From Nitrosopumilaceae archaeon (lineage in GTDB: Archaea; Thermoproteota; Nitrososphaeria; Nitrososphaerales; Nitrosopumilaceae): a DNA stretch of 64,000 bases. Made by a program: the position numbers and the translations under genes. The stretch spans positions 96,001 through 160,000 of the forward strand of contig CBDATR010000009.1 of assembly GCA_965200155.1 (NCBI GenBank), written 5' to 3'. How positions within the stretch are numbered: position 1 is the stretch's first letter; each line of letters begins with the position of its first letter. This document shows positions 14,041 through 64,000 of this stretch, in pieces. The notes below the pieces were generated by a model. The model was given only the letters and a program-made list of their open reading frames with translations, did no database searches and was not told the origin of the DNA.

Positions 14041-14137
14041 GTGTGAGTTCACCTGTCTAAATTTACGCATAACCGATCGCGACAGTTAAAGAACCGGTTC
14101 TTTTGTGCATAAGATTCCGGAAGACGTGAACTCATAC
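14041..14137. mobile_element. IS66-derived MITE (palindrome-bearing subfamily)
   Basis: TIR GT(A/G)TGAGTTCAC; internal aaagaaccggttcttt variant. Confidence 0.9.
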
Positions 14138-14448
14138 AAAACATCTACAATCAAAACTGAAGTAGTCAGGAATGGTAAGTGTATGGTCATCCAAAATTAC
14201 ATACTTGATTCTACCTATATAATTCCCCAACAAGTCCATATTTCTCACATGCAATCCTCATATATGCCACAAACTTTCAGGGCACACTATCGTTGCGCTC
14301 TGTTCTGTACAGATTGAGTTGTAGGTTAACTCATACCATCTGGTCATACGCGAGACTTCAAGAACACCCGACCCAACGATTTTGAGAAATGCGCGGAGAC
14401 AGACAGCCCATCATAACTATAGTCACACTGCTTAGCGACACACCACCA

Positions 14449-17400
14449 CTATCTCCTTGCCTTATATGGTAACATGGATATCTCTTTTATTATCTTGCCT
14501 GACTCCACCCCCACATACACCATCCGCTCCACCAGCGCAATAACATCATCCTGTGTCATGCGGGTACAAGGATCATCAATAACCAGGGCTTTCTTGTTTA
14601 CTTTTACACGATACTGATCAACAGCCCACTCCAGTGGTGTCCGGCCTCCAATACTATATGTTATCTCCGGTATGCCCTTAACTACCACATTCCCGTTTAT
14701 CATTAACCTGTCCTGTGGGGATTTACGACTCCAGTATGAGCCGGAAAGCGACATTTCCGTGAAAGAGTCAAACGGTCCAACCCACTCCAGGCTGTACCGG
14801 GGACCGGTCTCATAATTCAGGTGCAAGTCCACAAGACGCTTGCCATATTGGGCTATCATGTCGAAGTTCGGGGCCATGGGAATTCTGGGTAAATTACTCA
14901 AAAGGGAGTCCTTGAATCTCTTACGGTAACCCTCATGATGCAATAAACCATAGACGTAATGGAATATGTCAAGTTTGGTAATGGTATCATCATTATAATG
15001 TCCCCGGTATCGCGCCAGCGTAGAGTCCAGTATATTCTCGGTACCGGCGCCATCAGTATAATATGGAAAACAGTGCACATTACTCAGGACATTACTGTCC
15101 GGCGTTGTATCTGTCACAAGTACAGAGAGTCTTGTCTTTTGCGTCACCATAATGACGAGATTCTCCCGGCCACTACCAAAAATATTACAGCGTAACTGCC
15201 CCAAAGGCGTACGGTCCAAATCATCGCCCCGGGGAAAGAGTGAGGGAATTTCATGTGGCTTATTTATGAATATGTCAGTATCAAAGTACACGTATCTCTT
15301 GAAGAATGGGCGGTACAGTGCACGCCTTATCAGACTCCTGTCAAGTTCCGGATCAATATACGACTGATCCAGTCTGTCCAACACATACGGCGGCCGGGAG
15401 CCATAACGACTAACTCCCGGAAGCAGCGGGTTTATACAGTAACTTATGTATGATGCCATATTTATTACAAGCTCACTCTTGGATGAATTGTACAGCCACA
15501 AATCCCGTTGGGCATACAGCCCCAAAGAGTGCAGTCGGAATACGGAATTACCCACTGCACGGGTCCTCTTTTTACTCATGGGCATGTAACTCTCAAACTC
15601 ACGATCACTCTTGTCCTGCTTGACTATCTTCCAGCGTTGTATCTTGTCTACGGATTTTGTTTCCTTAAATTCATCCATACCCATCTCCTTGTAACGAACA
15701 GCACGGGTAGCCTTGTCATAATTCTTGACCAGAATGGTAATGAACATATCACCGGGTATCTTTACGCACCAGACGTTGGTAAATTTCTTGTGTAATAGTT
15801 TCTGGGCAACCCCGGCATCAATAAAACTGGCATCGGTCACCACCGCAATAATCCCCGTGTACTCTATACTGTCTGATGCCCAGCGCAAGGCCCGTATATA
15901 TGCAGCCTCGGACTTTTTCCCGGAATGCCCCGTTCCGGAATGGAACAGGCTGCCCATTATTACCAGCTGATCCGGAGGTGCCAGCGATTCAATTTTTTCA
16001 TATGGACTGAGAGTGGCTATCGATGATGCAGGCTGCCTATACCTTGGCGGTATGGGCGAGTCCATGGCAAGAGTGTCCGCATATCCCATGCCGCCAAAGG
16101 GCACGTACACGCCACCATTCCTGTTCTGGTATACGGTCTCGATATTTGCCCGGCTCACACAGTATGCAAGCAGATCAGACTGATTGGCATACAGATTATG
16201 TCCGTACATGTTAGTCGCGCCATAGTTCATGTACCGGGACTCGATTAGTCGCGCCATAAAGGAGCCCGTTACGGCAAAGGGCTCCAGCACTTTTACATAT
16301 GGATGGTTGAGCGCGACCTCGAACTGCCGTTTCAGGATATGGTTCACAGAATTTATGATAAACTCAATCACGGGAACGGGGACATTCACTATACCGCACG
16401 TTTCACCAAGAAAATTCCCGCACATCTTTTGTATGTACGACTGCCTTGCGGACCCGGTTGGTTTGGTCTCCCGGGATGCCTTCCCGGAGAAATTTCCCCC
16501 CAAACCCAGGACAACCATCATCCTTGCAAATTCACGCATGAGGGGATTATCCGGCGATACATAACCGGAGAATAACGAGTCAAGAACCGGCGAGAGGGCG
16601 GCATATTGCGAGACGGCACGCACTGCCGCATCCTGTGTTACCGGGTAGCTGACTAAATCCTCCACCTCCCCGCGGAACCGCTCCATTTCGGATTTGACGT
16701 GCTCATCATGAGTCATTCGGTCCCTCAAATTAGTCTCCATTCGGATAGCAGCCGCACTCAGTACCTGATCATTAATGTCACCCACCTTCTCCACAAGCTT
16801 TGACTTTATGCCGGTGAACATGCCACCCACCATTCCGGAGTCTTCCACTCCCAGAATGGACGTACTTATTCGGGAAGCGGAACTCGTATTGCCGTTACTG
16901 GAATTCAGCATCACTTCGTGAGCCAGGCTCTCATCATGCGATCGCAGTGCATTTAGTACCTGCCACACTACCTTGAAGGTCTTGTTATCATTCAGTGCCT
17001 CGTGGAATTTCACGCCGGCAGGCAGGGCAACAGGCAGTATCACATAACCGTACTGCTTTCCCGGCGACTTTCTCATTACGCGGCCCACCGACTGAATTAC
17101 ATCAACCCAGGACTTGCGGGGGTTCAGAAATATGACACCATCCAGTGCCGGAACGTCCACCCCCTCTGAGAGACACCTGGCGTTGGAGATTATCCTGCAC
17201 GTATCATCCCTGTCATTATCATCCAGCCACTGGAGACGGTCACGCCTTTTCATGGCGCCGGTCTTGCCGTCCACATGACTTACCTGCACACTATTTCCGG
17301 TACTAAGCTTCGCCATACTCTCATATTGCTCCACTATTCTTGCCATGCTGCGGTCCCGCCCCTCATGATCACTCATGGCTCCCGCAAACATCATGGAGCG

Positions 17401-18825
17401 ATCTATTCTATTGGTAAAGGCTATCACTTTTTTCAGCAATCGCGGCTTGTTCTCATCATCATCAGGATAATTCAGGCCGTGCCAGACCGCCGACAACAGT
17501 GTCCGCTCATCCAGCGGTACTGTTACATCATCAGAGCCGGTTGTATCCACTTGTGGAACCACTGCTATCTTTACGCGAAAATCCGCCAGTATTCCCCGAC
17601 TCACGGCATCTGTAAAGCCTAGATGATAAAACTGGGGCCCAAACTTTGACTCATCATCCATGGAATACACCATACTGTCCGTTTTGACCTTGACTGTATC
17701 GCTGTACATACTGGGGGTAGCCGTCATATAGAGCCGCTTTCGGCCGGAAATGTTCCTGTCCTCGTGTATCATTGTAAAGGATGACTTGTCCTCCACGCCG
17801 GTGGTGCGGTGCGCCTCATCGGCCAAAATGATATCAAACTTTCGCTTCCCCATGGCGTCTTTCACCACATCCAATGAGTGGTACGTGGAGAATACCACCG
17901 TCATGGCCTGCCTTGGCCGCCTTTTCAGGGACTCTTGCAGTATTGAATAATCGGTAGTAACCTCTGACTCCAGTTCTGTAATGGATGAATCCTCACTTAG
18001 GGACTGATCCGAGCATACGGCGATATAGTTGTGCTGCATATCGGCATTATCTGACCATGCACGCATGCTCTGCTGCACCAGTGATATGGACGGGACCGCA
18101 TACAGGATTAGGCTTCCGGGACCGGCGTATCTCTCCGCTATACGCAATGCCGTAATGGTCTTTCCCGTACCGCACGCCATGATTAACTTGCCCCGATCAT
18201 TTTTCTTGAACCCCTCAAGGACACCACTTATCGCGTCCTGCTGGTGCGGCCACAACTCCTTGGGCTCTTTTCTTTTTATCTCCGGGTAAGCGCTCCAGTC
18301 TATACCGGAGTAGCGGAACTTGTCCGTATCCAGTACGGAGCACCCGCTATATTTTATCAGATTCTCCGTGTCGCCAGTCAGAGGGTCGCCCGTGTACACC
18401 AGAATAGTATTAGTTATTTTCAGGGAGGCGGCCATGGCAAGAAACTCCTCCACCGATTTTATGTCCAGCGTTGACATAGTCTCATAGCACCTGCACAGAA
18501 TGGCGCATAACTGCCCGTCGTGCTGCCGGGCTATCATGTCTATTTTAGCATCATTACCGTCCCGGCCTGGCCACTCACTCCATGACCATACATTCTTGAA
18601 CCGGTTATGATACATGGAATCAGTAGCCAGAAAGTCCCGGCTTAATTTCACCATTATCTTGCCAAGCTGCTCAACGTCGCCGGATTCGGCCCTGACATAC
18701 TCCAGTACATCATCGAATGTATTCAACGGAAATGATGAATTTACCTCATTAAATAAAGTGTGGCTGTACCACATAACAGGATACAATGACCCGGGATGAT
18801 TCCGCGCAGTCGTGAAATCTGCCAC
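14449..18825 (-). CDS. Type ISP restriction-modification-like protein (Mrr-like nuclease-SF2 helicase-MTase-TRD) with degenerate nuclease and MTase motifs; probable TTG start near 18726
   Basis: MACGTGKT, DEAHRT, MTATP, NARCLSEGVDVPALD, QSVGRVMRK; C-terminal LlaBIII-like YRPF..., IFHYVYGLLH, LPRIP and PLEWAVDQY. Confidence 0.88.
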   Translation of the reverse strand: MADFTTARNHPGSLYPVMWYSHTLFNEVNSSFPLNTFDDVLEYVRAESGDVEQLGKIMVKLSRDFLATDSMYHNRFKNVWSWSEWPGRDGNDAKIDMIARQHDGQLCAILCRCYETMSTLDIKSVEEFLAMAASLKITNTILVYTGDPLTGDTENLIKYSGCSVLDTDKFRYSGIDWSAYPEIKRKEPKELWPHQQDAISGVLEGFKKNDRGKLIMACGTGKTITALRIAERYAGPGSLILYAVPSISLVQQSMRAWSDNADMQHNYIAVCSDQSLSEDSSITELESEVTTDYSILQESLKRRPRQAMTVVFSTYHSLDVVKDAMGKRKFDIILADEAHRTTGVEDKSSFTMIHEDRNISGRKRLYMTATPSMYSDTVKVKTDSMVYSMDDESKFGPQFYHLGFTDAVSRGILADFRVKIAVVPQVDTTGSDDVTVPLDERTLLSAVWHGLNYPDDDENKPRLLKKVIAFTNRIDRSMMFAGAMSDHEGRDRSMARIVEQYESMAKLSTGNSVQVSHVDGKTGAMKRRDRLQWLDDNDRDDTCRIISNARCLSEGVDVPALDGVIFLNPRKSWVDVIQSVGRVMRKSPGKQYGYVILPVALPAGVKFHEALNDNKTFKVVWQVLNALRSHDESLAHEVMLNSSNGNTSSASRISTSILGVEDSGMVGGMFTGIKSKLVEKVGDINDQVLSAAAIRMETNLRDRMTHDEHVKSEMERFRGEVEDLVSYPVTQDAAVRAVSQYAALSPVLDSLFSGYVSPDNPLMREFARMMVVLGLGGNFSGKASRETKPTGSARQSYIQKMCGNFLGETCGIVNVPVPVIEFIINSVNHILKRQFEVALNHPYVKVLEPFAVTGSFMARLIESRYMNYGATNMYGHNLYANQSDLLAYCVSRANIETVYQNRNGGVYVPFGGMGYADTLAMDSPIPPRYRQPASSIATLSPYEKIESLAPPDQLVIMGSLFHSGTGHSGKKSEAAYIRALRWASDSIEYTGIIAVVTDASFIDAGVAQKLLHKKFTNVWCVKIPGDMFITILVKNYDKATRAVRYKEMGMDEFKETKSVDKIQRWKIVKQDKSDREFESYMPMSKKRTRAVGNSVFRLHSLGLYAQRDLWLYNSSKSELVINMASYISYCINPLLPGVSRYGSRPPYVLDRLDQSYIDPELDRSLIRRALYRPFFKRYVYFDTDIFINKPHEIPSLFPRGDDLDRTPLGQLRCNIFGSGRENLVIMVTQKTRLSVLVTDTTPDSNVLSNVHCFPYYTDGAGTENILDSTLARYRGHYNDDTITKLDIFHYVYGLLHHEGYRKRFKDSLLSNLPRIPMAPNFDMIAQYGKRLVDLHLNYETGPRYSLEWVGPFDSFTEMSLSGSYWSRKSPQDRLMINGNVVVKGIPEITYSIGGRTPLEWAVDQYRVKVNKKALVIDDPCTRMTQDDVIALVERMVYVGVESGKIIKEISMLPYKARR

Positions 18826-18852
18826 CCATAATCGTTTGAAGACACATTACCA

Positions 18853-20241
18853 CTATCCCCCATAAGGCAGCATGGATATCTCTTTTATTATTCTGTCCGA
18901 CTCCACCATCCTCTCTATCAGCGCAATGACGTCTTTCCGTTTCATGTCAACCCCGTAATGGCGATAGAAGTGCCCACCTGATCTCTCTATCAGCGCAATG
19001 ACGTCTTTCCGTTTCATGTGGGCACACGGATCATCAACAACCATGGCTTGTTCACTTTTACCTGATACTGATAAACAGCCCACTGTAGCGGTGTCCAGCC
19101 TCCAATGTTGTATTTTATCTTCGGGATTCCCTTAACGACCACATGCCCGTTTATCTTCAACTTGTCCTGTGAATATTTACGACTATGAACCCGAAAACGA
19201 CATTCCCGTAAAAAAGTTAAACTTCCCAACCCACTCCAGGCCGTACCGGGGACCACTCTCATAATTCAAGTGTAAATCAGCAAGACGCTTGCCATAATGT
19301 GATATCATCTCAAAGTCCGGGCCATGGGAATTCTGGGCAGATTACTCAAAAGAGAGTCCGCAAATCTCTTACGGTAACCCTCATGATGCAGTAACCCATA
19401 GACGTAATAGAATATGTCCAGTTTCATAATGGAGTCATCATTATAATGCTCCCTGTACTGCCCCAGTGTGTCCCGTATATTCTCGGTACCGGCGCCATCA
19501 GTATGGAAAGCAGTGCCCATCATTCAGGACATTGCTGTCCGGTGTTGTATCGGTCATCAAAACTGAAAACGGTACATTCTTCGTCACCATAATGACAAGA
19601 TTCTCCCGGCCACCCGGGGATGCCCATTCGTTACATCTCCCCGTGGAAAGAGTGAGGGAATTTCATGTGACCTATTTATGAATATGCCAGTATCAAAGTA
19701 CACGTATCTCTTGAAGAATGGGCGGTACAGTGCCCTTCTTATCAGGCGCTCATCAAATTCCGTATAATCATACGACTTATACATCCTCTCCAATATGTAT
19801 GAGGGTTGCGGACCAAAGCGGCTCCTGCCAGGAGGCAAACCCGGACCCCGGTATTTACAATACTCCATGTATAACGCCACATTTTTCGCAAGCTCATCCC
19901 TGGACGAGTTATACGTATGAGTTCACGTCTTCCGGAATCTTGTGCACAAAAGAACCGGTTCTTTAACTGTCGCGATCAGTTATGCGTAAATTTAGACAGG
20001 TGAACTCACACGCACAGGATGGCTTACAACTGCCCGTCATGCTGCCGGGCTACCATGTCTATTCCCGTATCATGCACGTCCCGTTCTGGCCAGTCACTCC
20101 ATGACCATACATTCTTGAACCGGTTATGATACATGGAGTCGGTGGCCAGAAAGCCCTTAGCCTCTCCATTTTCTCGCCAAGCTGGTGTATGTCACCGGAT
20201 TCTGCCCCAATACGCTCTAGTACATCATCTAAGGTCTTCAA
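18853..20241 (-). pseudogene. Decayed Type ISP paralogue (N-terminus and TRD only; about 3 kb middle replaced by a MITE)
   Basis: Fragments MKTLDDVLE…, YRPFFKRYVYFD, IFYYVYGLLHHEGY and PLQWAVYQY are nucleotide-similar to 14449-18825; multiple frameshifts. Confidence 0.85.
19915..20011. mobile_element. IS66-derived MITE at the deletion junction of the ISP paralogue
   Basis: TIRs present; flanks do not match (no TSD). Confidence 0.9.
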
Positions 20242-20616: not shown

Positions 20617-21690
20617 TCAATAGTACGAAAAGTAAGTCCGCTTAGGATCCGGCGTACAGTAGTTCCGATTGCACAAGCCAGATGGTAAAGAGAATACAGA
20701 GGAATCAAGAGAATCGCGAAGCGATTCAGCAAGACAAAAGAGGCGTTGCCACAACCAAAATAGCTCAAGACCTGAGACGAGACACGTACGAAGATTGTGA
20801 ATTAGAGGACGGGAACGACTCAAGATGGGCAGGTCCATGATGCCAATCACCGCCACCCAGATACTAATGGTAACTGAAGCATATCACAAGGATCCCGCCG
20901 TAGTACGTATTGCAAAGAGAATTAGACATAATACATATCACGCAGTATATCGCATAATGAAAAAGAACGGTACGGCAGGATCATCACATGTAAAGTCAGA
21001 GTGGGTACGCTATGAGCGTAAATATTCCAATGCAATGTGGCACTGGCATGTCATGAAAAGATGAGCGCTTCAGGGGACTGAATCTCATAGATGATGCATC
21101 CAGGTGCATAGTCGGAGCTGCACTATTTGAGCATGCGACCTCAGAGAACGCCACTCTATTACTGAGACTGGCGATAAAGAGATTCGGCGCCCCTGCATCT
21201 TGGATAACGGCGCGTGTTTCGTAGGACAATAAAAGGGCAAGAAAAGCTGGAAACCCACACTATTCTAGGAAGAACTGCTGGATCAAGACATCATACTAAT
21301 CAATTCCAGACCATACTACCCGCAGACAAATGGCAAACTGGAGCGCTTCCATAGAACGATTGAGGACTAGGGGACTCTTATTTAAGAGTCCAACGAGATA
21401 TGGCATTATGACAGTCTCCGGGATTATGTAGACTACTACAATGAGAGAAGGTTGCACTTCTCACTGGATATAGATAACGGCGAAACACCACTCCAGGAAT
21501 AAAAAGGCGACCCAGACAATTAGAGCAAATGATACAAAATGGTATGAGTTCACCTGTGTCTAAATTTACGCACAACTGATCGCGACAGTTAATGTGATTT
21601 GTGCACAAGATTCCGGAAGACGTGAACTCATACACAAAATGGGTGGAGCGGGATGCCAATGACTAGCGGACCGACTTTTCATACATTACA
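20617..21690 (+). mobile_element. Decayed IS481-family element with a nested MITE (21542-21633, TSD acaaaatg)
   Basis: Same TIRs and integrase remnants as 9854-10811. Confidence 0.85.
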
Positions 21691-21771
21691 TATTCCAGAC
21701 CGGCACTTCACGTGTTGTTGAATCTGAGGGGACGGGACATGTGCTAGCCTTACTGTATGTTTTTCTTCCTG

Positions 21772-24099: not shown

Positions 24100-24751
24100 G
24101 TATGAGTTCACGTGTTTAGATTGGCGTAATGCATTCTACGTATGAGTTCACGTCTTCGGAATCTTATGCACAAAAGAACCGGTTCTTTAACTGTCGCGAT
24201 CAGTTATAGAATGACCCGTTCCATTTAGACACAGGTGAACTCATACCATTCTACTACAGAAAGGCCCGGTGTGGACTTTAACTGGCCGGGAATCATTCCC
24301 GGAACACATCCAAGAATGATTCAATCCCCTCAGTAATTTGCGCGGACGACCCACAACGATTCAGGGATGATCCGGGCGTCCTGATAGCGCCCAGGTGCTG
24401 ATACACGCCATTCTGTGACTCATTCCATGGTAGCCGTCCATATGAACTACTTACATCATCCAAATCTAGCCACTGTTCTCCGCTATTCCACATGTACCAT
24501 GAATTGTTCCCAGGCATAATTGGCCCTGGAATGGTCGCCCCTTTATTTACCGCACCCAATTGGAATCATTCCCGCTCACTGCTACCGCACATTCTAGCTG
24601 GCATTAATTCCGTTATGTGTACTCTGTCGGGACAGGATATACGCCAGCCTTACTGTCTTTTGGCTATTGGGCGGCTAGAACAGTACCATAGCTATGCCGT
24701 CCCGTGGTTGGGCGGCTAGAACAATTTCGTGGCTATGCCACACTCTCATAC
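24100..24751 (-). mobile_element. Second internally deleted IS66 derivative with a nested MITE (24140-24246, TSD cattctac)
   Basis: Shares rearranged junctions with 2876-3360 (acagaaaggcccggtgtggacttta; catcatccaaatctag; ttccgttatgtgtactctgt). The right boundary is approximate. Confidence 0.72.
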
Positions 24752-33570: not shown

Positions 33571-33979
33571 GTATGAGTTCACGTGTTTTGATCACATAAT
33601 AAGATAGAATGCATCCCAGTTTTTTAATTATAATTGCATTCTGGCAGCAACCTCGTTCATTACAGAAAGGCCCTGAGCCCTCCATGTCTGAACACATATG
33701 GACATGCGGCGCATGGCCCTTTCACCACCCTTTATCTGACCACTAATCTTGTGGAAAAATGCAGGCGGTGCGGAAAGTACATCCGTATCGCTTTCACCAC
33801 CCTTTATCTGACCACTAATCTTGCGGAATACCACTGCGTATCAGAACCGGTTCCACTGCTCCACTGGATTGTTGGTCGGCGCCACACTGTCATATTCTAA
33901 GAATACGAACATGCCTGGTATGGCCTTATTCAATCCTTTTACCTTCTTTTGCAGTTCAGTATCATCAACATCATAATAC
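33571..33979 (-). mobile_element. IS66 right-end fragment
   Basis: TIR GTATGAGTTCACGTGTTTTGATCA; VVFRKISGQIKGG remnant with an internal duplication. Confidence 0.85.
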
Positions 33980-34902: not shown

Positions 34903-35266
34903 AACCGGTGACCCAATACTGGAATTACCCTATGAGAACAAGGGGAGATAGTATGAGTTCACGTGTTTTGATCATTCACTAAGATATAGGTATGAGTTCA
35001 CGTGTTTTGATCATTCACTAAGATATAGATTGGTATGGTAATATTTTACTTAAATACCAAATTTGCAATAAGAATCTAATGAGAAGACGCCGGTCCTATA
35101 AGGAATTGGAACTGGAAAATAAACTTCTTCAGGATACCCTTGCGTCTACCGAGAAAGATCTTGCACATTACAAGGAACGTGTGAGAGTATTGGAAGCATA
35201 TGTGTCCCGCATCATAAAAGAAATACGAAATCTCACACAAGATTTCCAAATTATTAGGAATTATGT

Positions 35267-36938
35267 GTATGAGTTCACGTGTTTTGATCATTCACTAAGA
35301 TATAGATTGGTATGACAATATTTTACTTAAATACCAAATTTGCAATAAGAATCTAATGAGAAGACGCCGGTCCTATAAGGAATTGGAACTGGAAAATAAA
35401 CTTCTTCAGGATACCCTTGCGTCTACCGAGAAAGATCTTGCACATTACAAGGAACGTGTGAGAGTATTGGAAGCATATGTGTCCCGCACCACAAAAGAAA
35501 TACGAAATCTCACACAAGATTTCCAAATTATTAGGAATTATGTAAATGAATTGAATGAGAAATTAGAAGAAAAACAGGGGAAAATTGCGGTACTCACAAC
35601 GCGACTTAAATATTATGAGAATGCTCACTCGCCACCATCCCTTCAATCCCTCCAGTACAAGAAGCGAAAACAGGAGGAACAGAAGCGAAAACAGGGAGAT
35701 AATAAGCAACAGACAGAAGCCAGTACGAAATCAGCCAAAAAGGCTGGCGCGCAAAAGGGACACAAGGGGGTTTCCCGTTCCCACAACCCCGGCAGAGTAG
35801 TGCATCACACCTTTGAGTACACACCAATATGTGAGTGCGGCAATATGATGACAAAAATTGGTTGGAAACAACGACACATAACGGAATTAATACCAGCCAA
35901 AATAGAGGAGACCCTTCATGTGATAGAAATGGCTGCATGCAAGTGCGGCAAAAAACAACTGGCCCCAGCAGCGGGCGTCCCAAAGAGTGGTAGTTTTGGG
36001 GTTCAATTATGTGGTGCCATCACCGCATTACGCGCAGAAAAGATTCCAATAAAACGCATACCTGTAATTTCGAGGGATCTCTTCGGCCTAAATATATCGG
36101 TGGGTGCAGTAAACAACATAATTGCCAGGGCCGCCGATGCATGTGAATCATTTATGGAAACAATTCATGAGAATATAATAAAATCACCCAGCATTCATGT
36201 GGACGAAACTGGTATATCACTGGCGGGTAGGCGTGGCTGGGTATGGGGGATGCGAGCCGAAGAGTGGATGATGTCCATATATGACAAAAGTAGGAGTTCA
36301 AATGTAGTGAACAAATACCTGAACGGTTACCAGGGAGCGATAGTAACGGACAGGTACGTTGTGTACCGCCGGTTTGATGACGGTGGGAAGCACCAGTTGT
36401 GTTGGGCGCATTTATTGCGCGATACCCAGGCATTACATGCAGGATTCTATATCGATCCCGGTGCTCAGGACGCCCGGATCAAACTTGACAACGACCTGAA
36501 AGGATTGTTCCGGAGCGCACGGGAATCCCTGAATCACTGCGGGCCGTCCGCGCAATTACGACACTCATTTGAGACAGGAGCAGATGCATCAGTACTGTGA
36601 TGTTGATGATGCTGAACTACAAAAGAAGGTAAAAGGATTGAATAAGGCCATACCATGCATGTTCGTATTCTTAGAATATGACTGTGTAGAGCCCACCAAC
36701 AATCCAGCGGAGCAGTGGAACCGGTTCTGATACGCAGTGGTATTCCGCAAGATTAGTGGCCAGATAAAGGGTGGCGAAAGGGCAATGCGCCGCATGTCCA
36801 CATTCGTATCATGTGTTCAGACATGGAGGGCTCAGGGCCTTTCTGTTATGAACGAGGTTGCTGTCAGAATGCAGTTATAATTAAAAAAACTGGGATGCAT
36901 TCTATCTTATTATGTGATCAAAACACGTGAACTCATAC
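35267..36938 (+). mobile_element. Near full-length IS66-family element (likely MITE parent), preceded by two extra left ends at 34951 and 34990
   Basis: 24-bp TIR GTATGAGTTCACGTGTTTTGATCA at both ends. Confidence 0.9.
35356..36600 (+). pseudogene. IS66 transposase (TnpC-like), C-terminally frameshifted
   Basis: Coiled coil, AH.PPS, GAQKGHKG, CxC Zn motifs, HVDETG, VTDRY and HQLCWAHLLR; the PTNNPAE motif lies downstream in another frame. Confidence 0.88.
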
Positions 36939-38186: not shown

Positions 38187-38838
38187 GTATGAGTTCACGT
38201 GTTTTGATCATATAATAAGATAGAATACATCCTAGTTTTTTAATTATAATTGCATTCTGGCAGCAACCTCGTTCATTACAGAAAGGCCCTGAGCCCTCCA
38301 TGTCCGAACACATATGGACATGCGGCGCATGGCCCTTTCACCACCCTTTATCTGGCCACTAATCTTGCGGAATACCACCGCGTATCGCAGAGTCTGCTCC
38401 GCTGGATTGTTGGTGGGCTCCACACTGTCATATTCTAGGAATACGAACATGCCTGGTATGGCCTTATTCAATCCTTTTGTATGAGTTCACCTGTGTCTAA
38501 ATTTACGCACAACTGATCGCGACAGTTAGTGTGATTTGTGCACAAGATTCCGGAAGACGTTAACTCATACATCCTTTTACCTTCTTTTGCGTATGAGTTC
38601 ACGTGTTTTGATCATTCACTAAGATATAGATTGGTATGACAATATTTTGCTTAAATACCAAATTTGTGATAAGAATCTAATGAGAAGACGCCTGTCCTAT
38701 AAGGAATTGGAACTGAAAAATAAGCTTCTTCAGGATACCCTTGCGTCTACCAAGAAAGAACTTGCACATTACAAGGCAGGGGCCATGGGCCGCCTTGTCC
38801 TACGTCTTGCGGCTACCGATAAAGATCTTGCACATTAT
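38187..38838. mobile_element. IS66 right-end fragment (with MITE 38479-38570, TSD atcctttt) plus a left-end fragment from 38591
   Basis: TIRs at 38187 and 38591; native PTNNPAEQTLRYAV reading. Confidence 0.85.
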
Positions 38839-40296: not shown

Positions 40297-40395
40297 GTAT
40301 GAGTTCACCTGTGTCTAAATTTACGCACAACTGATAGAACCGGTTACCAGTTAATGTGATTTGTGCATAAGATTCCGGAAGACGTGAACTCATAC
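40297..40395. mobile_element. MITE variant, TSD gaaaatag
   Basis: TIRs and 8-bp TSD; internal agaaccggttac replacement. Confidence 0.9.
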
Positions 40396-42645: not shown

Positions 42646-44054
42646 TGTATGTCCTCCAGGGCGTGGGCCGTACGCAACAAGTCACCATCGTGGCCGCTAT
42701 CGGCCATAATCTGTATTCCTACAGAGAGTCCACCGCTCTCCCCGTATGGCACGGATATTGCGGGCTTGCCCGCCAAATTGGCCATTACGGTATTAACATC
42801 AATATCAAATAATGATACGGGGTCATCTATTCTCTCACCCAGCCTGAATGGTAGTACAGGTACCGTGGGGGAGAGTAAGTAATCATATTCACGGAATAAC
42901 GAGTCCAGGTTTCTAGTAAGCCGATCCTTAACTTTTAGCGCCTTTAGGAAATATTTCCCGGAATAACCGGCCGACGTTACGAATCCGCCCGCAATTATTC
43001 GGCGCTTTACCTCGGGTCCGAACCGGCTCCTGGACTTTGTAACGTATCGGTGAAATTCGTAACTACTAATGTCCATGTCGTAACCGTATCGTATATTGTC
43101 ATAGCGGGCAAGATTACTGGCAGCCTCAGCAGAGGTTATGGTATAGTAGGCGGCCACTGAGTAGTCTACCATATCAAGGGATACCTCGTCTATACTAGCG
43201 CCCAGCTGGGTCAGACGCGATATTGCCTCATCCAGGACATGACGTATTCCCGACGGCATGGAAGGGGGAACCATCTGTTTTATGATACCCACCCTCTTGT
43301 TCTTTATTGTGTATGCGGGGTCCTGGCCAATGCCGGTATTAGCCGGTACGGTCATGGTGGTATGATCGTACGGGTCCCGGCCGCATATGATACTCATGAC
43401 CGTCTCAATATCCGATACAGACCGCGCCATGGGTCCTATCTGCTCTATACTGTTGGCATAAGATATCAGGCCATACCTGCTAATCATGCCATAGGTGGGC
43501 TTAAAACCCGCCACACCACAAAAACTTGCAGGATTCCGGACAGAACCGCCGGTGTCAGAACCCAGCGATACGGCAGCAGTACCTGCCGCCACCGATGCGG
43601 CGCTTCCGCCAGAGGATCCTCCGGGCACATATGACTTGTTGCACGGATTCAGGGTTGGCCCAAAGCTGCTAAATTCGGTAGTCAGACCCATGGCAAACTC
43701 ATCCATGTTAGTTTTGCCTACTATAATGGCGCCCTCATCACGCAGACGCGTTATCACCGTAGCATCATATGGCGATACATATGACTCTAGCATGCGCGAT
43801 GCGCATGTGGTCGGCATGCCCGTAACACAGATGTTGTCCTTGATTGATATGGGCACCCCTGCCAGACGGCCTGCATCATTACCGGAGCGTATCTTTCTGT
43901 CTATATCCTTGGCCTGCTCCAGCATTTGTGGGTTCACAGTAATGTAGATGTTCATATCTTTGGTCTCCTCTATCCGCTCTGCTATGGCAGATATGGTCTC
44001 CTGCGCCGTTACCTGCCCGTCCCTTATGGATTTGGCCAAGGACGAAACGGACAT
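42642..44054 (-). CDS. gatA: Asp/Glu-tRNA amidotransferase subunit A
   Basis: GKTNMDEFAMG, PGGSSGGS, GSDTGGSVR, SNLARYD. Confidence 0.97.
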   Translation of the reverse strand: MSVSSLAKSIRDGQVTAQETISAIAERIEETKDMNIYITVNPQMLEQAKDIDRKIRSGNDAGRLAGVPISIKDNICVTGMPTTCASRMLESYVSPYDATVITRLRDEGAIIVGKTNMDEFAMGLTTEFSSFGPTLNPCNKSYVPGGSSGGSAASVAAGTAAVSLGSDTGGSVRNPASFCGVAGFKPTYGMISRYGLISYANSIEQIGPMARSVSDIETVMSIICGRDPYDHTTMTVPANTGIGQDPAYTIKNKRVGIIKQMVPPSMPSGIRHVLDEAISRLTQLGASIDEVSLDMVDYSVAAYYTITSAEAASNLARYDNIRYGYDMDISSYEFHRYVTKSRSRFGPEVKRRIIAGGFVTSAGYSGKYFLKALKVKDRLTRNLDSLFREYDYLLSPTVPVLPFRLGERIDDPVSLFDIDVNTVMANLAGKPAISVPYGESGGLSVGIQIMADSGHDGDLLRTAHALEDIQ

Positions 44055-55799: not shown

Positions 55800-55825
55800 A
55801 CGCGATTCAATAAAGACGTACCAAT

Positions 55826-57085: not shown

Positions 57086-57385
57086 TGTATCATACCCTTT
57101 GCGCGTGGTATAGCGTAACGATATCAGTACCTGTTTGTACAGGCGATGCTAATGCGCCATAATCAGTAACCGTTTAGGTCGCCCCTGGCAAAGAGAAATG
57201 TATTTCACCAGATTCTTCTTGGCGTAATAGACTAACTTGTCCCAAGTATTGACAGGAGCATATCAGTCGTGTTGAGTTCACGCTTTCTCCACGTCATCAT
57301 GCAGGTCAGGATGTTCTCGACTACCTGCATACCCTTGTTCGAACCCCAAGACATGCGTATCTTGTGATATATGACGAAGCGGCGC

Positions 57386-57486
57386 GTGTGAGTTCACCTG
57401 TGTCTAAATTTACGCATAACTGATGGAACAGGTTGTTCTAGTTAATGTGATTTGTGCACAAGATTCCGGAAGACGTGAACTCATAC
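57386..57486. mobile_element. MITE variant adjoining a remnant of a second IS66-like element (about 57165-57385)
   Basis: TIRs; the neighbouring minus strand reads FVIYHKIRMSWGSNKG..VENILTCMMTW. Confidence 0.8.
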
Positions 57487-57859
57487 TCCTGATTTGGTTT
57501 CTTTGAATGGTTATTCGTATTCTCCGGATATTATTATGATTGATAATAATGTAGTTGATGTTCCGACTATGTCTATGTTAGTTGCTAATTTGCATACTTG
57601 CTATAAGATGGATTTCTTTGTTGATCATGAGATTTGGAAGTTGCGTGAATCTAAAAAATTATTTTCTGTTTATGGTGGGTCTATTGTTCGCATATGATGA
57701 TTATCTTGTCGTATATTTCTTCCATCCATGTTTTGTATAGATCTGTATTATCTTTATTATACATAATAATATATGAATCTATCATATATATAAGTGTGAA
57801 AAATTATTTTTGGATCTATATTAGACCTTATGCGCATGATTGACAGTAACAGCCCATGT

Positions 57860-58835
57860 GTATGAGTTCACGTGTTTTGATCATATAATAAGATAGAATG
57901 CATCCCAGTTTTTTAATTATAATTGCATTCTGGCAGCAACCTCGTTCATTACAGAAAGGCCCTGAGCTCTCCATGTCTGAACACATATGGACATGCGGCG
58001 CATGGCCCTTTCACCACCCTTTATCTGTCCACTAATCTGTATGCCGTATTTGGCAAGATAACACCCTTGGCCAAATTCACCTTTCACCACCCTTTATCTG
58101 CCCACTAATCTGTATGAGTTCACCTGTGTCTAAATTTACGCATAACTGATCGCGACAGTTAATGTGATTTGTGCACAAGATTCCGGAAGACGTGAACTCA
58201 TACACTAATCTTGCGGAATACCACTGCGTATCAGAACCGGTTCCACTGCTCCGCTGGATTGTTGGTCGGCTCCACACTGTCATATTCTAGGAATACGAAC
58301 ATGCCTGGTATGGCCTTATTCAATCCTTTTACCTTCTTTTGTAGTTCAGTATCATCAACATCACAATACTGATGCATCTGCTCCTGTCTCAAACGAGTAT
58401 TGTAATTGCGCGGACGGCTAGCAGGGATTCACGTGCGCTCCGAAACAATTCTTTCAAGTCGTTGTCAAGTTTGATCCGGGCGTCCTGATCACCGGGATCG
58501 ATATAGAATCCTGCATGTAATGTATGAGTTCACCTGTGTCTAAATTTACGCATAACTGATCTCGACAGTTAATGTGATTTGTGCACAAGATTCCGGAAGA
58601 CGTGAACTCATACGTAATGTATGAGTTCACCTGTGTCTAAATTTACGCATAACTGATCTCGACAGTTAATGTGATTTGTGCACAAGATTCCGGAAGACGT
58701 GAACTCATACCTAAATTATGCAACGCATAAAATGCAAAATATGCAGGCAATATATTTTCATGACTGTATGAGTTCACCTATGTCTAAATTCATGCATGAT
58801 GATTTGAGCACGTAGTTGAAGACGTGAACTCATAC
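57860..58835. mobile_element. IS66 right-end fragment with MITEs 58112-58203 (TSD actaatct), tandem 58522-58613 and 58619-58710, and a short variant 58766-58835
   Basis: TIRs and similarity to 36430-36938. Confidence 0.87.
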
Positions 58836-58919
58836 TACATTTTTGCTATGCACGACCTAAACGGTTACTCGTGTAAAGCGGGTTTCGTTTATATATATGA
58901 CCATTACCATTCATAGGTA

Positions 58920-59468
58920 ATGAGTGGTATAAGTAACCCATACGAGGAAATGTACAAGAAATGGATAGAGCAGAATATGCAGACAATCAGTGAGATGCAA
59001 AAGAACTTTGAGCAGATGAGCGGGAATATGCAGAATGCAATAAAAATGCCCGCGGAGATGCAAAAGAACTTTGAGCAGACCAAGCAGATGTGGGAGAATA
59101 TGCAGAATGCAATAAAAATGCCCGCGGAGATGCAAAAGAACTTTGAGCAGGTTAACAAGTATATGCAAAACGCGTATACGCCTGATGGATGGTCCAAAAT
59201 GAACGAGCAGGTTAACGATATGAGTAAAATTCCACAAACATGGACAGCCTTCATTGATCAAATGTCAAAGATGTCCCCATGGCAACAACCGCGGGAGCAA
59301 CTTTTTGTACCGAACATGCTGATGAATTGGGCTGCGTTTAAGACGTCCATAGGGAGTAATGGTCGAATATCCATACCCGAGGCTGAGCGCAGTGCATTAA
59401 AGATTCGCGAAGGTGATCTGGTCCAGGTTATAGTACTACCAGTATCAAAGAGGGAGGTGAAAGAATGA
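58920..59468 (+). CDS. AbrB-domain protein with Met/Gln-rich helical repeats (PhaR-like)
   Basis: C-terminal SIGSNGRISIPEAERSALKIREGDLVQV (AbrB/SpoVT); lies next to phaEC. Confidence 0.75.
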   Translation: MSGISNPYEEMYKKWIEQNMQTISEMQKNFEQMSGNMQNAIKMPAEMQKNFEQTKQMWENMQNAIKMPAEMQKNFEQVNKYMQNAYTPDGWSKMNEQVNDMSKIPQTWTAFIDQMSKMSPWQQPREQLFVPNMLMNWAAFKTSIGSNGRISIPEAERSALKIREGDLVQVIVLPVSKREVKE

Positions 59469-59884
59469 ATAAGAATGAGCAAGCACAGCAAAAAGACGTA
59501 TTTGCAATTTACAAGGATATTATGGACAAGGCTATCAATAGCATAAATCAGTCAGTACCCCGTTATCATCAATCGATAACTAATACACAGCAAGAGGTAA
59601 TCAAGTCTCTGGAGAATAACATGACCCAGGCAATACAGATACAGCAAGAACTCGCCACAAAGAGTGGCATGTCTACTACCGTACCTGATGCTAGCATAAA
59701 GGCAATCAAGGAGGCTGCAGAAGGCTACCTAAAGATTAGCGCTATTTACAACCAGATGGCACTGTCTGCAATGGATGCTGCCCAACAGAGTATCAAGTCT
59801 GCCAGTGACAACTCAAAGTCGTTTAACGACATAGCACAGAGTACAATGCGTTCGTACATGTCCGCATTTGCAGTGACAAACTAG
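59465..59884 (+). CDS. Putative phasin (PHA granule protein)
   Basis: Ala/Gln/Ser-rich helical 139 aa, translationally coupled to the AbrB gene; the call rests on context. Confidence 0.55.
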   Translation: MNKNEQAQQKDVFAIYKDIMDKAINSINQSVPRYHQSITNTQQEVIKSLENNMTQAIQIQQELATKSGMSTTVPDASIKAIKEAAEGYLKISAIYNQMALSAMDAAQQSIKSASDNSKSFNDIAQSTMRSYMSAFAVTN

Positions 59885-60945
59885 TCCGAATTTTTGGATA
59901 ACCAACTGCCCAATTCGGGCAGAACTATTTTTTGAGATAATTTACTAGCTATCATGCCCACGTGACCGGTGGGATACAGGCGCAGTCTCTTTTCCTGGCT
60001 ACCCACTGCATAATGAAGGGGCATACTGCATTCCGGTGAAACCAGATGATCTCCCACAGCTACCTGCGTAAATATTGGCATGTCTATATTGTGCAGGTTC
60101 ACCACTTGATCCCCCACCATCATTTTACTCTGGACCAACAAATTTTTTTGATATATGTTTTTGATCCACTCCCTGAAAAGTTCACCGGGAATGGGCGGGG
60201 TGTCATTAAGCCACTTTTCCACTCGCAGGAAATTATCCACAAATTTTTCATTATCAATGTTCTTGAAAAAATTGATGTATTTTTCAATTCCCTGCTCGAA
60301 TGGTTTCAGTACGGAGAAACAATAGTACATAAATTCCGGCGGCATATTCCCCACAATATCCACAAGCTTGTCCACTTCCATGTGTTTGGAGAGATTACTT
60401 ACTACCGTGGTGTCCTTGTCGCCATCTATCACCGGTGCAGTAGCTACAAAGTTGCGCACTTTTTTGGGATACAATGCTGTGTATATTGCGGCTATTGTTC
60501 CGCCTGTGCAATAGCCTTGTAGTGTAACGTTATCTACGGATGCCGTGTCGCATACATGATCTATACACGAGTCCAGATACACGTTTACGTAATCATCAAA
60601 GTCCAGGTATCTATCCATGTTGCTCGGAGTACCCCAGTCTACCATGTAGACATCATAACCCTGAGATAACAGGTTGCGCACCCAGCTTTTGGTTGGGTGT
60701 ATGTCAAGAATGTGGTACCGGTTTATCAAGGCATAGGCTATCACGATGGGGATGCGGTGAGTGCTGGGTTGTGTACCGGCGTAATGGAGCAGACGGACCT
60801 TGTCTATGTTGTATACCTCATCGTATGGAGTGATCTCCAAGTTCATTTCGTCCGGCGCCTTTACCAAATCCGGGGCACGAAGTATGTTGGAGCTGAACCG
60901 GGCCAGCTCCTCCATCATGTGATCAGGTATGGTTGACTCCATCAT
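59881..60945 (-). CDS. phaC: Class III PHA synthase subunit PhaC
   Basis: YALINR..ILD, DWG, GYCTGG lipase box, D-H, TGHVG. Confidence 0.95.
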   Translation of the reverse strand: MMESTIPDHMMEELARFSSNILRAPDLVKAPDEMNLEITPYDEVYNIDKVRLLHYAGTQPSTHRIPIVIAYALINRYHILDIHPTKSWVRNLLSQGYDVYMVDWGTPSNMDRYLDFDDYVNVYLDSCIDHVCDTASVDNVTLQGYCTGGTIAAIYTALYPKKVRNFVATAPVIDGDKDTTVVSNLSKHMEVDKLVDIVGNMPPEFMYYCFSVLKPFEQGIEKYINFFKNIDNEKFVDNFLRVEKWLNDTPPIPGELFREWIKNIYQKNLLVQSKMMVGDQVVNLHNIDMPIFTQVAVGDHLVSPECSMPLHYAVGSQEKRLRLYPTGHVGMIASKLSQKIVLPELGSWLSKNSD

Positions 60946-61507
60946 TTGACCTCCGTCTCATTTTAGACTCCAGTATGGCAACCCGCTTGCGCAGTGAGTG
61001 TAATTCACCATACACCTCATCAAGCTCATGGCGATTAGGCAGGTTTGCTGTTTTTAGTACTATATCGGATATGTTATTCCAGTGCTTGGTAAGATCCAGT
61101 TCTTTTGAAACCATCTTTCCATAGTTCCGCCCAAAATCTTTTGAATCGAACAGATCAGTAAAGTCATTATCAAATATATCAATCCATATACGTTTGTAGG
61201 CCTCGAATCTCTCTGGATCTTTGGGTAGATCCGAGGTTCGCATATCCACCTTCTTTTGGGCCTCCTGCCATACCTCACTCATTTGCCTGTAATATTCAGC
61301 CAAGTATGTACCAAAATCAGTCATTGACTGATTCATCTCTATGAGTTCAGATGTGACCTTTTTGGTGTTGGCTGCCATGGCCCGCAGGGGCCCTATGGAA
61401 GACAGAGCCTGGGGCTTGCTGTTCATGAGGTATAATAAATCCGTCCAGAATACGGATACATGCTTGTAGTAGTCCCGTGCATTCTCTTCCATGCTTGCTA
61501 TATTCAC
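60923..61507 (-). CDS. phaE: PHA synthase subunit PhaE
   Basis: WIDIFD, NLPNRHELDEVY.ELH.LRKRV; directly upstream of phaC. Confidence 0.88.
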   Translation of the reverse strand: MNIASMEENARDYYKHVSVFWTDLLYLMNSKPQALSSIGPLRAMAANTKKVTSELIEMNQSMTDFGTYLAEYYRQMSEVWQEAQKKVDMRTSDLPKDPERFEAYKRIWIDIFDNDFTDLFDSKDFGRNYGKMVSKELDLTKHWNNISDIVLKTANLPNRHELDEVYGELHSLRKRVAILESKMRRRSNDGVNHT

Positions 61508-61675
61508 TAAAACGATATAAGCAGCTTGTAACTTTTGTGCAAGTTCATGTATGACTATGCATAATGGATTCCTGCAAGCAATCGTGCAATTGGCCTGTCA
61601 AGATCAAATCATGGATGTAAGGTAAGAGACCAGTACCACTTAACAGTTTTATCCAGCATGTAGCGTTATATTTTC

Positions 61676-61759
61676 GCAGAGGTCGCCTAGCCAGGTAGGG
61701 CGCGGGCCTTGAGAGCCTGTGTCAGCAATGACGCGGGGGTTCAAATCCCCCTCTCTGCG
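61676..61759 (+). tRNA. tRNA-Ser(UGA)
   Basis: GCAGAGG…TCTCTGC-G; anticodon arm CGGGC-CTTGAGA-GCCTG; long variable arm; GGTTCAAATCC. Confidence 0.93.
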
Positions 61760-61851
61760 TACATTGGAGGTGATTCAAATAGGTCGATCTCTCCGGAAGA
61801 TTGTGAAAGTTGATATGTTTTAATTAAATATTGACCGAGTGGTTAAATACC

Positions 61852-63620
61852 TCAATAGTACGAAAAGTAAGTCCGCTTAGGATCCGGCGTACAGTAGTTC
61901 AGATTGCACAAGCCACGAAAGGCTATGGTAAAGAGAATAACAGAGGAATCAAGACAGTACATCATAAGACAGCACAAAAGAGGCGTTGCCGCAACCAAAA
62001 TGTATGAGTTCACCTGTGTCTAAATTTACGCACAACTGATCGCGACAGTTAATGTGATTTGTGCACAAGATTCCGGAAGACGTGAACTCATACACCAAAA
62101 TAGCTCAAGATCTACACATCAGTTCAAGACACGTACGAAGATTGTGAACCAGAGGACGGGAACGACTCGAGTAAAGATGGGCAGGCCTATGATACCAATC
62201 ACCGCCACCCAGATACGAATGGTAACTGAAGCAATACAGCAAGGATCCCGCCGGAGTAGTACGTATTGCAGAGGCTTAGACATGATACATATCGCGCAGT
62301 ATATCACATAATGAAAAAGAACGGTACGACAGGATCATCACCTGCAAAGTCAGAGTGGGTACGCTATGAGCGTAAATATTCCAATACAATGTGGCACTGG
62401 CATGTCGTGAAAGATGAGCGCTTCAGGGGACTGAATCTCATAGATGATGCATCCAGGTGTATAGTCGGGGCGGCACTATTCGAGCATACAACCTCAGAGA
62501 ACGCCGTTCTATTACTGAGACTGGCAATGAAACGATTCGGCGCCCCTGCATCTCGGATAACGGCGCGTGTTTCGTAGGACAATAAAAGGGCAAGAAAAGT
62601 TGGAAACCAACACTATTCAAGGAAGAACTGCTGGATCAAGACATCATACTAATCAATTCCAGACCATACCACCCGCAGACAAATGGCAAACTGGAGCGCT
62701 TCCATGGAATGATTGAGGACGAGGGGACTCTTATTTAAGAGTCCAACGAGATAGTATGAGTTCACCTGTGTCTAAATTTACGCATAACTGATCGCGACAG
62801 TTAATGTGATTTGTGCATAAGATTCCGGAAGACGTGAACTCATACCTATATCTTAGTGAATGATCAAAACACGTGAACTCATACTTCTACCCGGCGCAAA
62901 GGTCATAATTCCATACAGGGGTAGGGAATCACTCACTAAAACTGAAAGGAATTACAACCAATATGTATCAAAAAGGCGCATATTAATCGAGCATGTAATT
63001 CGAATGCCAAAGGTATATCGTAGATTAAGTCAGGTATATGATGGTAGTCGTGAGGAATTCCGGGAAGATCTACTCGTAGTATCCGGGTTGCATAATTTAC
63101 ACATTATGCACAAGCATACCAGGTACAAGAAATTCTTGAAAAATATCTGTATGAGTTCACCTGTGTCTAAATTTACGCACAACTGATCGCGACAGTTAAT
63201 GTGATTTGTGCACAAGATTCCGGAAGACGTGAACTCATACAAATATCTGTCCATAATTTCCGTGTTATTATAATTCGAATATTACTTATCAGAAAATCCA
63301 CTAAATTAATGGGTTTTGTGGTAACCATTTGTATGAGTTCACGTCTTCCGGAATCTTATGCACAAATCACATTAACTGTCGCGATCAGTTATGCGTAAAT
63401 TTAGACACAGGTGAACTCATACACGAGATATGGCATTATGACAGTCTCCGGGATTATGTTGACTACTACAATGAGAGAAGGTCGCACTTCTCACTGGATA
63501 TAGATAACGGCGAAACGCCGCTTCAGGAATAAAAAGGCGACCTAGACAATTAGGGCAAATGATGCAAAATGGATGGAGCGGGATGCCAATGACTAGCGGA
63601 CCGACTTTTCATACATTACA
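61852..63620 (+). mobile_element. Decayed IS481 element containing MITE 62002-62093 (TSD accaaaat) and composite insertion 62754-63422 (TSD acgagata)
   Basis: IS481 TIRs at both ends; nested MITEs at 62754, 63149 (TSD aaatatct) and 63331, plus an ISL2 fragment. Confidence 0.87.
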
Positions 63621-64000
63621 GATGATACTGAACTACAAAAGAAGGTAAAAGGATTGAATAAGGCCATACCAGGCATGTTCGTATTCCTAGAATATGACAG
63701 TGTGGAGCCGACCAACAATCCAGCGGAGCAGTGGAACCGGTTCTGATACGCGGTGGTATTCCGTAAGATTAGTGGCCAGATAAAGGGTGGTGAAAGGGCC
63801 ATGCGCCGCATGTCCATATGTGTTCAGACATGAAGGGCTCAGGGCCTTTCTGTTATGAACGAGGTTGCTGCCAGAATGCAGTTATAATTAAAAAAACTGG
63901 GATGCATTCTATCTTATTATGTGATCAAAACACGTGAACTCATACGAATTATGTATGAGTTCACCTGTGTCTAAATTTACGCATAACTGATAGAACCGGT
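63621..64000 (+). mobile_element. IS66 right-end fragment (to 63945) and a partial MITE (63953 to window end)
   Basis: TIR …gatcaaaacacgtgaactcatac, then a new gtatgagttcac. Confidence 0.85.

Follow-up and report, generated by a model that had tools for sequence, protein, structure and literature searches.

Short palindromes replace native bases in mobile elements of a Nitrosopumilaceae archaeon and may derive from IS66-family transposon ends

A palindrome of 12-15 nt has repeatedly overwritten short segments of mobile elements in a 64,000-nt stretch of DNA from a sponge-associated Nitrosopumilaceae archaeon (the window; G000:C9:96001-160000, in genome G000). Compared with sister copies of the same elements, 4-7 native bases are swapped for 12-15 bases, with GAACCGGTTC as the recurrent 10-nt palindrome, and no target sequence is duplicated. 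Replacement without duplication at several sites had been proposed from the window sequence in an original prediction, and the alignment of 23 miniature inverted-repeat transposable elements (MITEs) and five pieces of IS66-family insertion sequences (IS) bears it out. The palindrome is the derived state wherever this can be checked, it has spread through transposition of its hosts, and its sequence matches the termini of IS66-family elements. It may be an unusually small mobile DNA or a transposon scar, residing in other jumping genes and in one defence gene. The origin of the short palindromic repeats common in prokaryotes is mostly unexplained, and the near-identical host copies available here, in the hundreds, provide exact before-and-after pairs for a 12-base unit that overwrites rather than duplicates and is tied by sequence to transposon termini.

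G000 comprises 2.38 Mb in 51 contigs, with 46.6% G+C and 87.6% completeness; it contains an archaeal amoA gene and therefore belongs to an ammonia-oxidising archaeon. The window stretch was also found in public sequencing runs, including sponge metagenomes of two studies. Its housekeeping genes (gatA/B, aspS, hisS, pyrG, bioB and others) are accompanied by Cas genes of the GSU0053/54 type, a Type ISP restriction enzyme and abundant mobile DNA. Replacement tracts were defined by alignment of the 23 MITE copies and five IS66 pieces of the window, genome-wide allele counts were anchored on the flanks of each site, and repeats in G000 were surveyed with a k-mer pair catalogue of the plus strand only. 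Full-text literature searches on the motif, small dispersed repeats, palindromic mobile elements in archaea, IS66 footprints and sponge-thaumarchaeal MITEs turned up no account of this element.

Over-representation of the palindrome

The window holds 11 matches to GAACCGGTTC at ≤1 mismatch against 1.17 expected, a count reached in 0 of 100 shuffles, and the looser pattern DKAACMGGKY matches 28 times against 4.75 expected. Exact copies start at 14091, 19952, 24176, 33844, 36718, 58234 and 63734. Genome-wide, the 10-mer occurs exactly 113 times, 110 of them in the form RGAACCGGTTCY, and ranks second among the 10-mer palindromes of G000. Contexts were listed for five common 10-mer palindromes: only GAACCGGTTC is spread over many, and the other four, each derived mostly from one single repeat, were set aside. 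Unique DNA holds only some 2-4 copies. RGAACCGGTTCY is present in 0-2 copies in each of 30 relatives and in at most 7 in any of 250 other genomes of the class, 61 of which have one or more (the tally includes an unpublished genome, G154, on which no result depends).

Several look-alikes were placed outside the palindrome family: the window matches at 18598 and 20117 (TGAACCGGTTAT) and at 43020 (GAACCGGCTC, within gatA); the seven matches of genome G222, which lie in GC-rich sequence unrelated to the MITE and IS contexts of G000; GTAACCGGTTTC (29 copies), a native TnpB coding sequence; and GGAACCGGCTCT, a native near-match in an IS that carries TnpB. An origin of the HIP1 type known from cyanobacteria was rejected, GCGATCGC having only 6 copies. 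Four extra palindrome loci found no match in Rfam.

Replacement of native bases in MITE-1

The principal host is MITE-1, a 92-nt element with 570 paired copies in G000, in which at least five positions have been hit. Among 576 MITE end pairs, 408 span 92 nt, 59 span 99 nt and 70 span 101 nt, and a few reach 130 nt. The copies of interest in the window are the following.

14090..14101, unstranded: site-1 palindrome AGAACCGGTTCT for TGTGA; host MITE-1 at 14041-14137 (+)
19951..19962, unstranded: site-1 palindrome AGAACCGGTTCT; host MITE-1 at 19915-20011 (-)
21542..21633, + strand: reference native MITE-1, 92 nt, terminal inverted repeat (TIR) GTATGAGTTCAC, 8-bp target-site duplication (TSD)
24175..24186, unstranded: site-1 palindrome AGAACCGGTTCT; host MITE-1 at 24140-24246 (-), of a multi-event lineage
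24208..24222, - strand: site-3 15-mer GGAACGGGTCATTCT for TTACGC; host MITE-1 at 24140-24246
40336..40347, + strand: site-2 palindrome AGAACCGGTTAC for CGCGA, reading GTAACCGGTTCT on the other strand; host MITE-1 at 40297-40395 (+)
57425..57439, + strand: site-2b 15-mer GGAACAGGTTGTTCT for CGCGAC; host MITE-1 at 57386-57486 (+)
63992..64000, + strand: start of a site-2 palindrome, AGAACCGGT...; MITE-1 copy that begins at 63953 and ends with the window

At site 1, TTAA-TGTGA-TTTG is converted to TTAA-AGAACCGGTTCT-TTTG in three window copies. Site 2 changes from GAT-CGCGA-CAG to AGAACCGGTTAC in one copy, while in the overlapping site 2b the native CGCGAC gives way to GGAACAGGTTGTTCT; at site 3, TTACGC becomes GGAACGGGTCATTCT. 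Direct repeats beside the unit are absent at every compared site, and no intermediate allele was found among the 570 MITE copies. Genome-wide allele counts, including those of a fourth MITE-1 site and of the IS66 gene described below, are as follows (SNP, single-nucleotide polymorphism).

Site 1: native TGTGA 410; AGAACCGGTTCT 48 (and 4 with one SNP), AGAGTAACCGGTTCT 5, AGAGTAACCGGTTACTAT 4
Site 2: native CGCGAC 382; GGAACAGGTTGTTCT 66 (and 3), AGAACCGGTTACC 21, GGAACCGGTTACC 1
Site 3: native TTACGCA(T/C) 444; GGAACGGGTCATTCTAT 15
Site 4: native CCGG 522; GGAACCGGTTCC 8, GGAGTAACCGGTTACGTTCC 2
IS66 site: native 32; AGAACCGGTTCCA 35, AGAACCGGTTACA 3

MITE-1 thus displays eight palindrome allelic states within 92 nt. 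Two of the events are nested: the longer forms at sites 1 and 4 correspond to a second event within an earlier palindrome, as where GGA-ACCG-GTTCC has become GGA-GTAACCGGTTAC-GTTCC. Hybrid forms are present as well (AGAGTAACCGGTTCT; AGAACC joined to GGTTAC). DNA folding of native and variant MITEs gives z-scores of -2.6 to -5.1, with no clear rule by which the targets lie in loops.

Two further observations concern site 1. At G000:C5:89747-89830 a 48-nt MITE piece is present as a tandem repeat; it extends from the TIR as far as the site-1 palindrome end, so the palindrome edge and a breakpoint coincide. At the same site, exactly 9 nt (ATGTGATTT) are missing from two old MITE copies.

The IS66 transposase gene and a restriction gene

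The same replacement is found in the transposase gene of an IS66-family element (group 1), which likely drives MITE-1. Its family assignment is based on a Pfam DDE_Tnp_IS66 match (E 2.4e-28) and on the 8-bp TSD of the MITE, perfect in 331 of 570 copies.

33843..33854, unstranded: palindrome AGAACCGGTTCC, followed by A, in a fragment of the IS66 transposase gene
34990..36938, + strand: IS66 group-1 element, 1949 nt, TIR GTATGAGTTCACGTGTTTTGATCA, carrying the palindrome
36717..36728, unstranded: palindrome in this full-length group-1 copy, reading ...PTNNPAEQWNRF-stop
38387..38393, - strand: native IS66 site (GCAGAGT on the + strand), reading ...PTNNPAEQTLRYAVVF...
58233..58244, unstranded: palindrome in an IS66 fragment
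63733..63744, unstranded: palindrome in an IS66 fragment

The native GCAGAGT at 38387-93 is represented by AGAACCGGTTCCA at 33843, 36717, 58233 and 63733. The native gene is translated as EPTNNPAEQTLRYAVVF... and the variant as EPTNNPAEQWNRF-stop. The premature stop had been placed four codons after the conserved glutamate; it lies five residues past it, the variant reading PTNNPAE-QWNRF-stop where the native form continues as PTNNPAE-QTLRYAV.... Of 21 long IS66 copies, 13 are native at this site; nine of these retain a frame of 501-515 aa, while the eight palindrome-bearing copies reach at most 467 aa. A degenerate IS66 lineage (G000:C10:457800-458260, C35:2870-3390 and C24:174470-175000) has lost bases in ten deletions within about 470 nt; these measure 8-14 nt (9 nt in six cases), and their junctions often carry 1-3 changed bases. 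The deletion sizes of this lineage and of the old MITE copies match the 8-9 bp duplications of local IS66 elements.

One in-frame palindrome site lies in a Type ISP restriction gene, a multi-copy gene whose C-terminal restriction-modification region is found in at least 13 paralogous pieces in the 2.4-Mb genome (window copy at 14449-18825, - strand). Six paralogues read KKPN-RTGS-PGPK (AAT-AGAACCGGTTCC-CCG) and seven read KKPN-DG-PGPK (AAT-GACGGT-CCC). In a comparison of 120 foreign homologues, the loop of 37 is shorter by two residues than that of the RTGS form, and RTGS at this position was seen only in P0001, a protein of G000 itself. The RTGS insert shows that a working gene, too, can receive the unit in frame.

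Further occurrences are a 250-nt MITE (G000:C5:44293-44541 and four other copies), which holds palindromes and has no empty comparator, and a few 12-mers in unique intergenic DNA. The 250-nt MITE has 24-bp TIRs (GGAAATTATATACGAAAGTAGCAC) and three adjoining palindromes, GGAACCGGTTCT, ATTCCATGGAAT and GAATCATTC, and a 5-nt indel lies inside GGAACGGGTTA(CGTTC)CATTCC.

The palindrome is derived and spreads with its hosts

At every site where polarity can be checked, the palindrome is the derived state, because native alleles dominate in the MITE (410 of 485 copies at site 1), the native IS66 gene keeps its full frame and foreign Type ISP genes lack the insert. This disposes of the converse possibility, named in advance as a refutation, that the palindrome is ancestral. 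Each MITE allele is a transposing subfamily with TSDs of its own: perfect 8-bp duplications flank 27 of 41 copies with the site-1 palindrome, 39 of 68 with that of site 2b and 245 of 402 native ones. The palindrome-bearing subfamilies are slightly less diverged, with 0.44-0.55 SNPs per copy against 0.89 for native MITEs.

Every allele occurs on both MITE haplotypes in near-native ratio (549 of 570 copies parsed): TT and CC number 208 and 123 among native copies, 33 and 18 at site 2b, and 20 and 13 at site 1. Copies therefore exchange sequence, and those at one site represent one event. Spread within a site is thus by host transposition and by exchange between copies. The palindromes of sites 1, 3 and 4 accumulate in one 15-copy lineage, and those of sites 1 and 2 never share a copy. 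The independence of the sites claimed by the original prediction stands, copies at one site are not independent, and its proposed refutation, a single ancestral event spread by conversion, holds within a site and not between sites. The distinct states are eight in MITE-1, one in IS66, one in the Type ISP gene, one in the 250-nt MITE and a few in unique intergenic DNA, and therefore reflect about 10-15 events, not 110. The expected enrichment in mobile DNA is also evident, with the eight MITE states and the IS66 gene set against the few copies in unique DNA.

Similarity to IS66-family termini

The termini of IS66 elements start with GTAA, and the host elements of G000 agree with this family in their DDE_Tnp_IS66 transposase, 8-bp duplication and termini starting GTA. 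A search for elements ending in half-sites of the palindrome revealed a second IS66-family group in G000 (group 2). Its members, MITEs measuring about 100-250 nt and 1.8-kb remnants of IS, end in GTAACCGTTTAGGTC and have 9-bp duplications. Tips of the group begin GTAACCG...; 308 termini were found, and the 14-mer at ≤1 mismatch has 225 matches. The group-2 IS contains a DDE_Tnp_IS66 fragment (Pfam E 1.4e-9) on a broken frame. Only 7 of 77 paired group-2 MITEs have a perfect 9-bp TSD, and the family is therefore old. One stretch in the window is bounded by these termini.

57166..58868, + strand: stretch bounded by group-2 termini (GTAACCGTTTAGGTC ... inverted), heavily invaded by copies of MITE-1 and by IS66 group-1 fragments

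The first seven bases of the group-2 tip are identical to the half-site of GTAACCGGTTAC (7/7). By our estimate, a 7-mer match to the extreme end of one of the ~10-15 local element families would arise by chance only a few times in a thousand. A closer likeness is found in G010, a relative from a related genus, which harbors a 60-nt MITE with 8-bp TSDs and tips GTAACCGGTTAGGT containing AACCGGTT. The nested insert GTAACCGGTTACGT (G000:C5:44019-44032) is identical to the G010 tip at 13 of 14 positions, palindrome halves match tips of this type at 11/12 to 13/14, and the site-2b 15-mer has the tip variant AACAGGTT as its core; most palindrome copies nonetheless begin with AG or GG. The 60-nt MITE was not found in G000. 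A 20-mer of MITE-1 had no match in a scan of metagenome contigs and, own records left out, none among the genome-contig matches listed. The palindrome and the mobile elements are both specific to this lineage.

The only two exact copies of GAACCGGTTC in G010 adjoin the right tip of the 60-nt MITE, one locus being present twice (C1:1006409-1006478, or L026:1501-1570, and C1:391551-391620). At these junctions five bases, GAACC, separate the right tip from the flank and are the reverse complement of the five flank bases that follow, a P-nucleotide-like arrangement that hints at hairpin chemistry. In G000 (C43:33793-33830), a MITE-1 with the target duplication AACCGGTT lies beside a group-2-like tip, GTAACCGGTTATAGGTCAC, that itself contains AACCGGTT.

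Possible origins of the palindrome

The account that we favour, tentatively and with somewhat less than even confidence, is that the palindromes are tip-derived micro-insertions or scars of an IS66-family lineage. The 12-mers (xxAACCGGTTyy) would derive from IS66-family ends whose terminal inverted repeat starts GTAACCGGTT. A palindromic tip would amount to a left and a right end placed back to back, both facing outward, and might be excised or copied as a 12-14 bp piece. Transposase-linked events, or break repair that uses tips as filler or template, would then write the tip-sized piece, mostly into other IS66-mobilised elements, where it would replace 4-7 bases without a target duplication. 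Continued transposition of the host element, MITE or IS, and sequence exchange among its copies then multiplied each event passively. Both the tips as source and the enzymatic route are our inference. The match to termini counts in favour of this origin, as do the adjacency of palindrome and MITE tip in G010, the restriction of palindrome and mobile elements to this lineage, the bias toward IS66-mobilised DNA, and the single-step, polarised change from the native state. In a stronger version, which we consider rather unlikely, the palindromic tip is a 12-bp 'nano-transposon' (two ends with nothing between) that the transposase excises and writes over resident bases; it would be the smallest mobile DNA known and a route by which one transposon family could mark, truncate or tame another.

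A number of results weigh against a tip-derived origin. All copies lack a target duplication and have cost their hosts native bases, which rules out ordinary insertion and a classical footprint. The commonest forms start with AG or GG, not GT. An element with (T)AGAAC tips had been anticipated, but a search for RGAACC tips yielded no abundant element in G000, including none with RGAACCG tips; the group-2 tips of G000 (AACCGTTT) are no palindromes; and only short broken frames are present in the two examined full-length copies of the group-2 IS and in their fragments. Collapsed elements of the form AACCGT-N(0-40)-ACGGTT gave 0 matches against 15 in the control, and displaced duplications or P-nucleotide-like junctions at MITE ends in G000 did not exceed chance, at 2 of 570 against 12 of 569 in the control. 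G010 has palindromic tips and yet no expansion of the 12-mer, and none of the MITE-1 copies has a group-2 element at sites 1-4. A footprint composed of duplicated target bases or P-nucleotides was tried by inspection and reproduces none of the variants.

Alternatively, the unit might be an independent tiny palindromic element, moved in trans like repetitive extragenic palindromic sequences (REPs), REPINs or small dispersed repeats (SDRs), that enters the centres of short native palindromes, its likeness to IS66 tips being a coincidence or due to a shared protein. One constant unit is indeed found in unrelated contexts and nested into itself, and the replaced bases are often central in small palindromes (AAT-GTG-ATT, TCGCGA, TTCCGGAA, GACGGTC, GCAGAGTCTGC), within which REP-like repeats have been reported to insert (PMC3733652). 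However, the Y1/RAYT transposase domain PF01797 has 0 matches in G000 at its 87.6% completeness, against matches in 6 of 14 control genomes; 12 nt is far below any described REP or SDR, the events number only ~10-15, and the 13/14 match to a transposon tip is left without explanation. We regard this origin as doubtful. A similarly small share of probability goes to ectopic templated repair or gene conversion, in which ancestral palindromes are copied to broken sites by microhomology-mediated template switching and no mobile unit exists. The occurrence of all alleles on both MITE haplotypes in near-native proportions, the hybrid forms and the gathering of three palindromes in one 15-copy lineage are consistent with it, as is the T found before the unit at 6 of 8 junctions, suggestive of 1-nt microhomology; but homology between the flanks of different sites does not exceed 1 nt, the ends of the copied tract are always identical, and exchange accounts for spread at a given site but not for the initial arrival at a new one.

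Selection might instead retain the palindrome as a putative protein-binding site (an operator, a transposase decoy or a site that damps transposition), with recurrence by selection. The palindrome cuts the IS66 transposase short, to 467 of 515 aa, and is nevertheless the commoner form (38 vs 32 sites), and the slightly younger palindrome-bearing MITE subfamilies point the same way. Selection cannot make a 12-base replacement in one step, and no binding protein was identified; we consider this very improbable as the source of the repeats, while noting that a binding function is compatible with the other origins. A sequencing or assembly artefact, such as the adapter or barcode that would have undone the original prediction, has practically no chance of being correct: the copies have SNPs of their own, the elements that contain them have transposed and have perfect TSDs, a gene holds one copy in frame, and variant forms are present in contigs of runs from two studies, although those contigs break inside MITEs and none bridges the palindrome from unique flanks.

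Comparison with known short palindromic repeats

Nearly precise excision of Tn10 and the footprints of Tc1/mariner and hAT elements are reportedly remnants of transposon excision, the type of process to which the original prediction had also pointed. The likeness lies in a short palindromic sequence from two element tips left in otherwise intact DNA, and the net gain here, +6 to +9, is near the 8-9 bp duplications of local IS66 elements. In classical remnants, both target duplications persist and the native bases stay complete; the palindromes of G000 show no duplication, 4-7 native bases are gone and the outer two bases vary (AG, GG, GT). The footprint proposal is strengthened by the match to IS66-family termini and excluded in its classical form. 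As for an ordinary MITE or IS, no target-site duplication was found around the 12-mer at any site checked, and as a footprint it has the tip-like sequence without the duplication.

Elhai et al. are said to have described, in 2008, Nostoc SDRs of 21-27 nt with a conserved hairpin, nested in MITEs and in themselves and encoding no protein; the name of smallest mobile elements has been given to them. Nesting in MITEs and in own copies is common to both units, but the SDRs of 21-27 nt are cyanobacterial and unlinked to transposon termini, whereas the present unit is of 12 nt, archaeal and tip-like. The Nostoc work (Elhai et al. 2008, Genome Res 18:1484) is cited in PMC3116915. REPs and REPINs resemble the palindrome as short palindromes that land in small native palindromes and genes, as described in PMC3733652. 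They differ in size (imperfect palindromes of 20-40 nt, mostly extragenic, vs 12-15 nt), in their GTAG/CGTC tags, and in numbering hundreds, usually with a Y1 transposase, whereas the present unit occupies ~10-15 distinct sites and owes its copy number to host elements. Rickettsia palindromic elements are palindromic inserts that lie in frame in protein genes. As with the RTGS of the Type ISP enzyme, in-frame inserts are tolerated in the case of these elements and of yeast mitochondrial GC clusters (PMC4478555), but at ~30-150 nt both are much longer, and their origin is not known to be related to IS termini. If the link to transposon tips holds, it would offer a concrete, testable source for very small dispersed palindromes, and one mobile family of a host-associated archaeon would then be seen to cut short the transposase of another and to put four residues, RTGS, into a restriction enzyme.

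Other mobile elements

About 20 TnpB-like matches (Cas12f1-like TNB) were found in G000, among them an IS of some 1.6 kb with ~27 copies (e.g. G000:C10:488595-490220), but no Y1 TnpA. A 958-nt IS (TIR TGTAATGTATGAAAAGTCGGTCCGC, ~90 copies; seen at window 9854-10811) has inserted at least four times at one position of MITE-1, in both orientations and each time with a 15-bp duplication CA(C/T)AAGATTCCGGAA (G000:C43:8755, C43:33822, C10:419602 and C13:40894, all outside the window). One copy of this IS has, at window 20708-20731 (G000:C9:116708), an extra 24 nt missing from ~30 sister copies; the insertion holds the palindrome GAATCGCGAAGCGATTC with an apparent 5-bp duplication, CAAGA, and a similar one is present at C24:245355.

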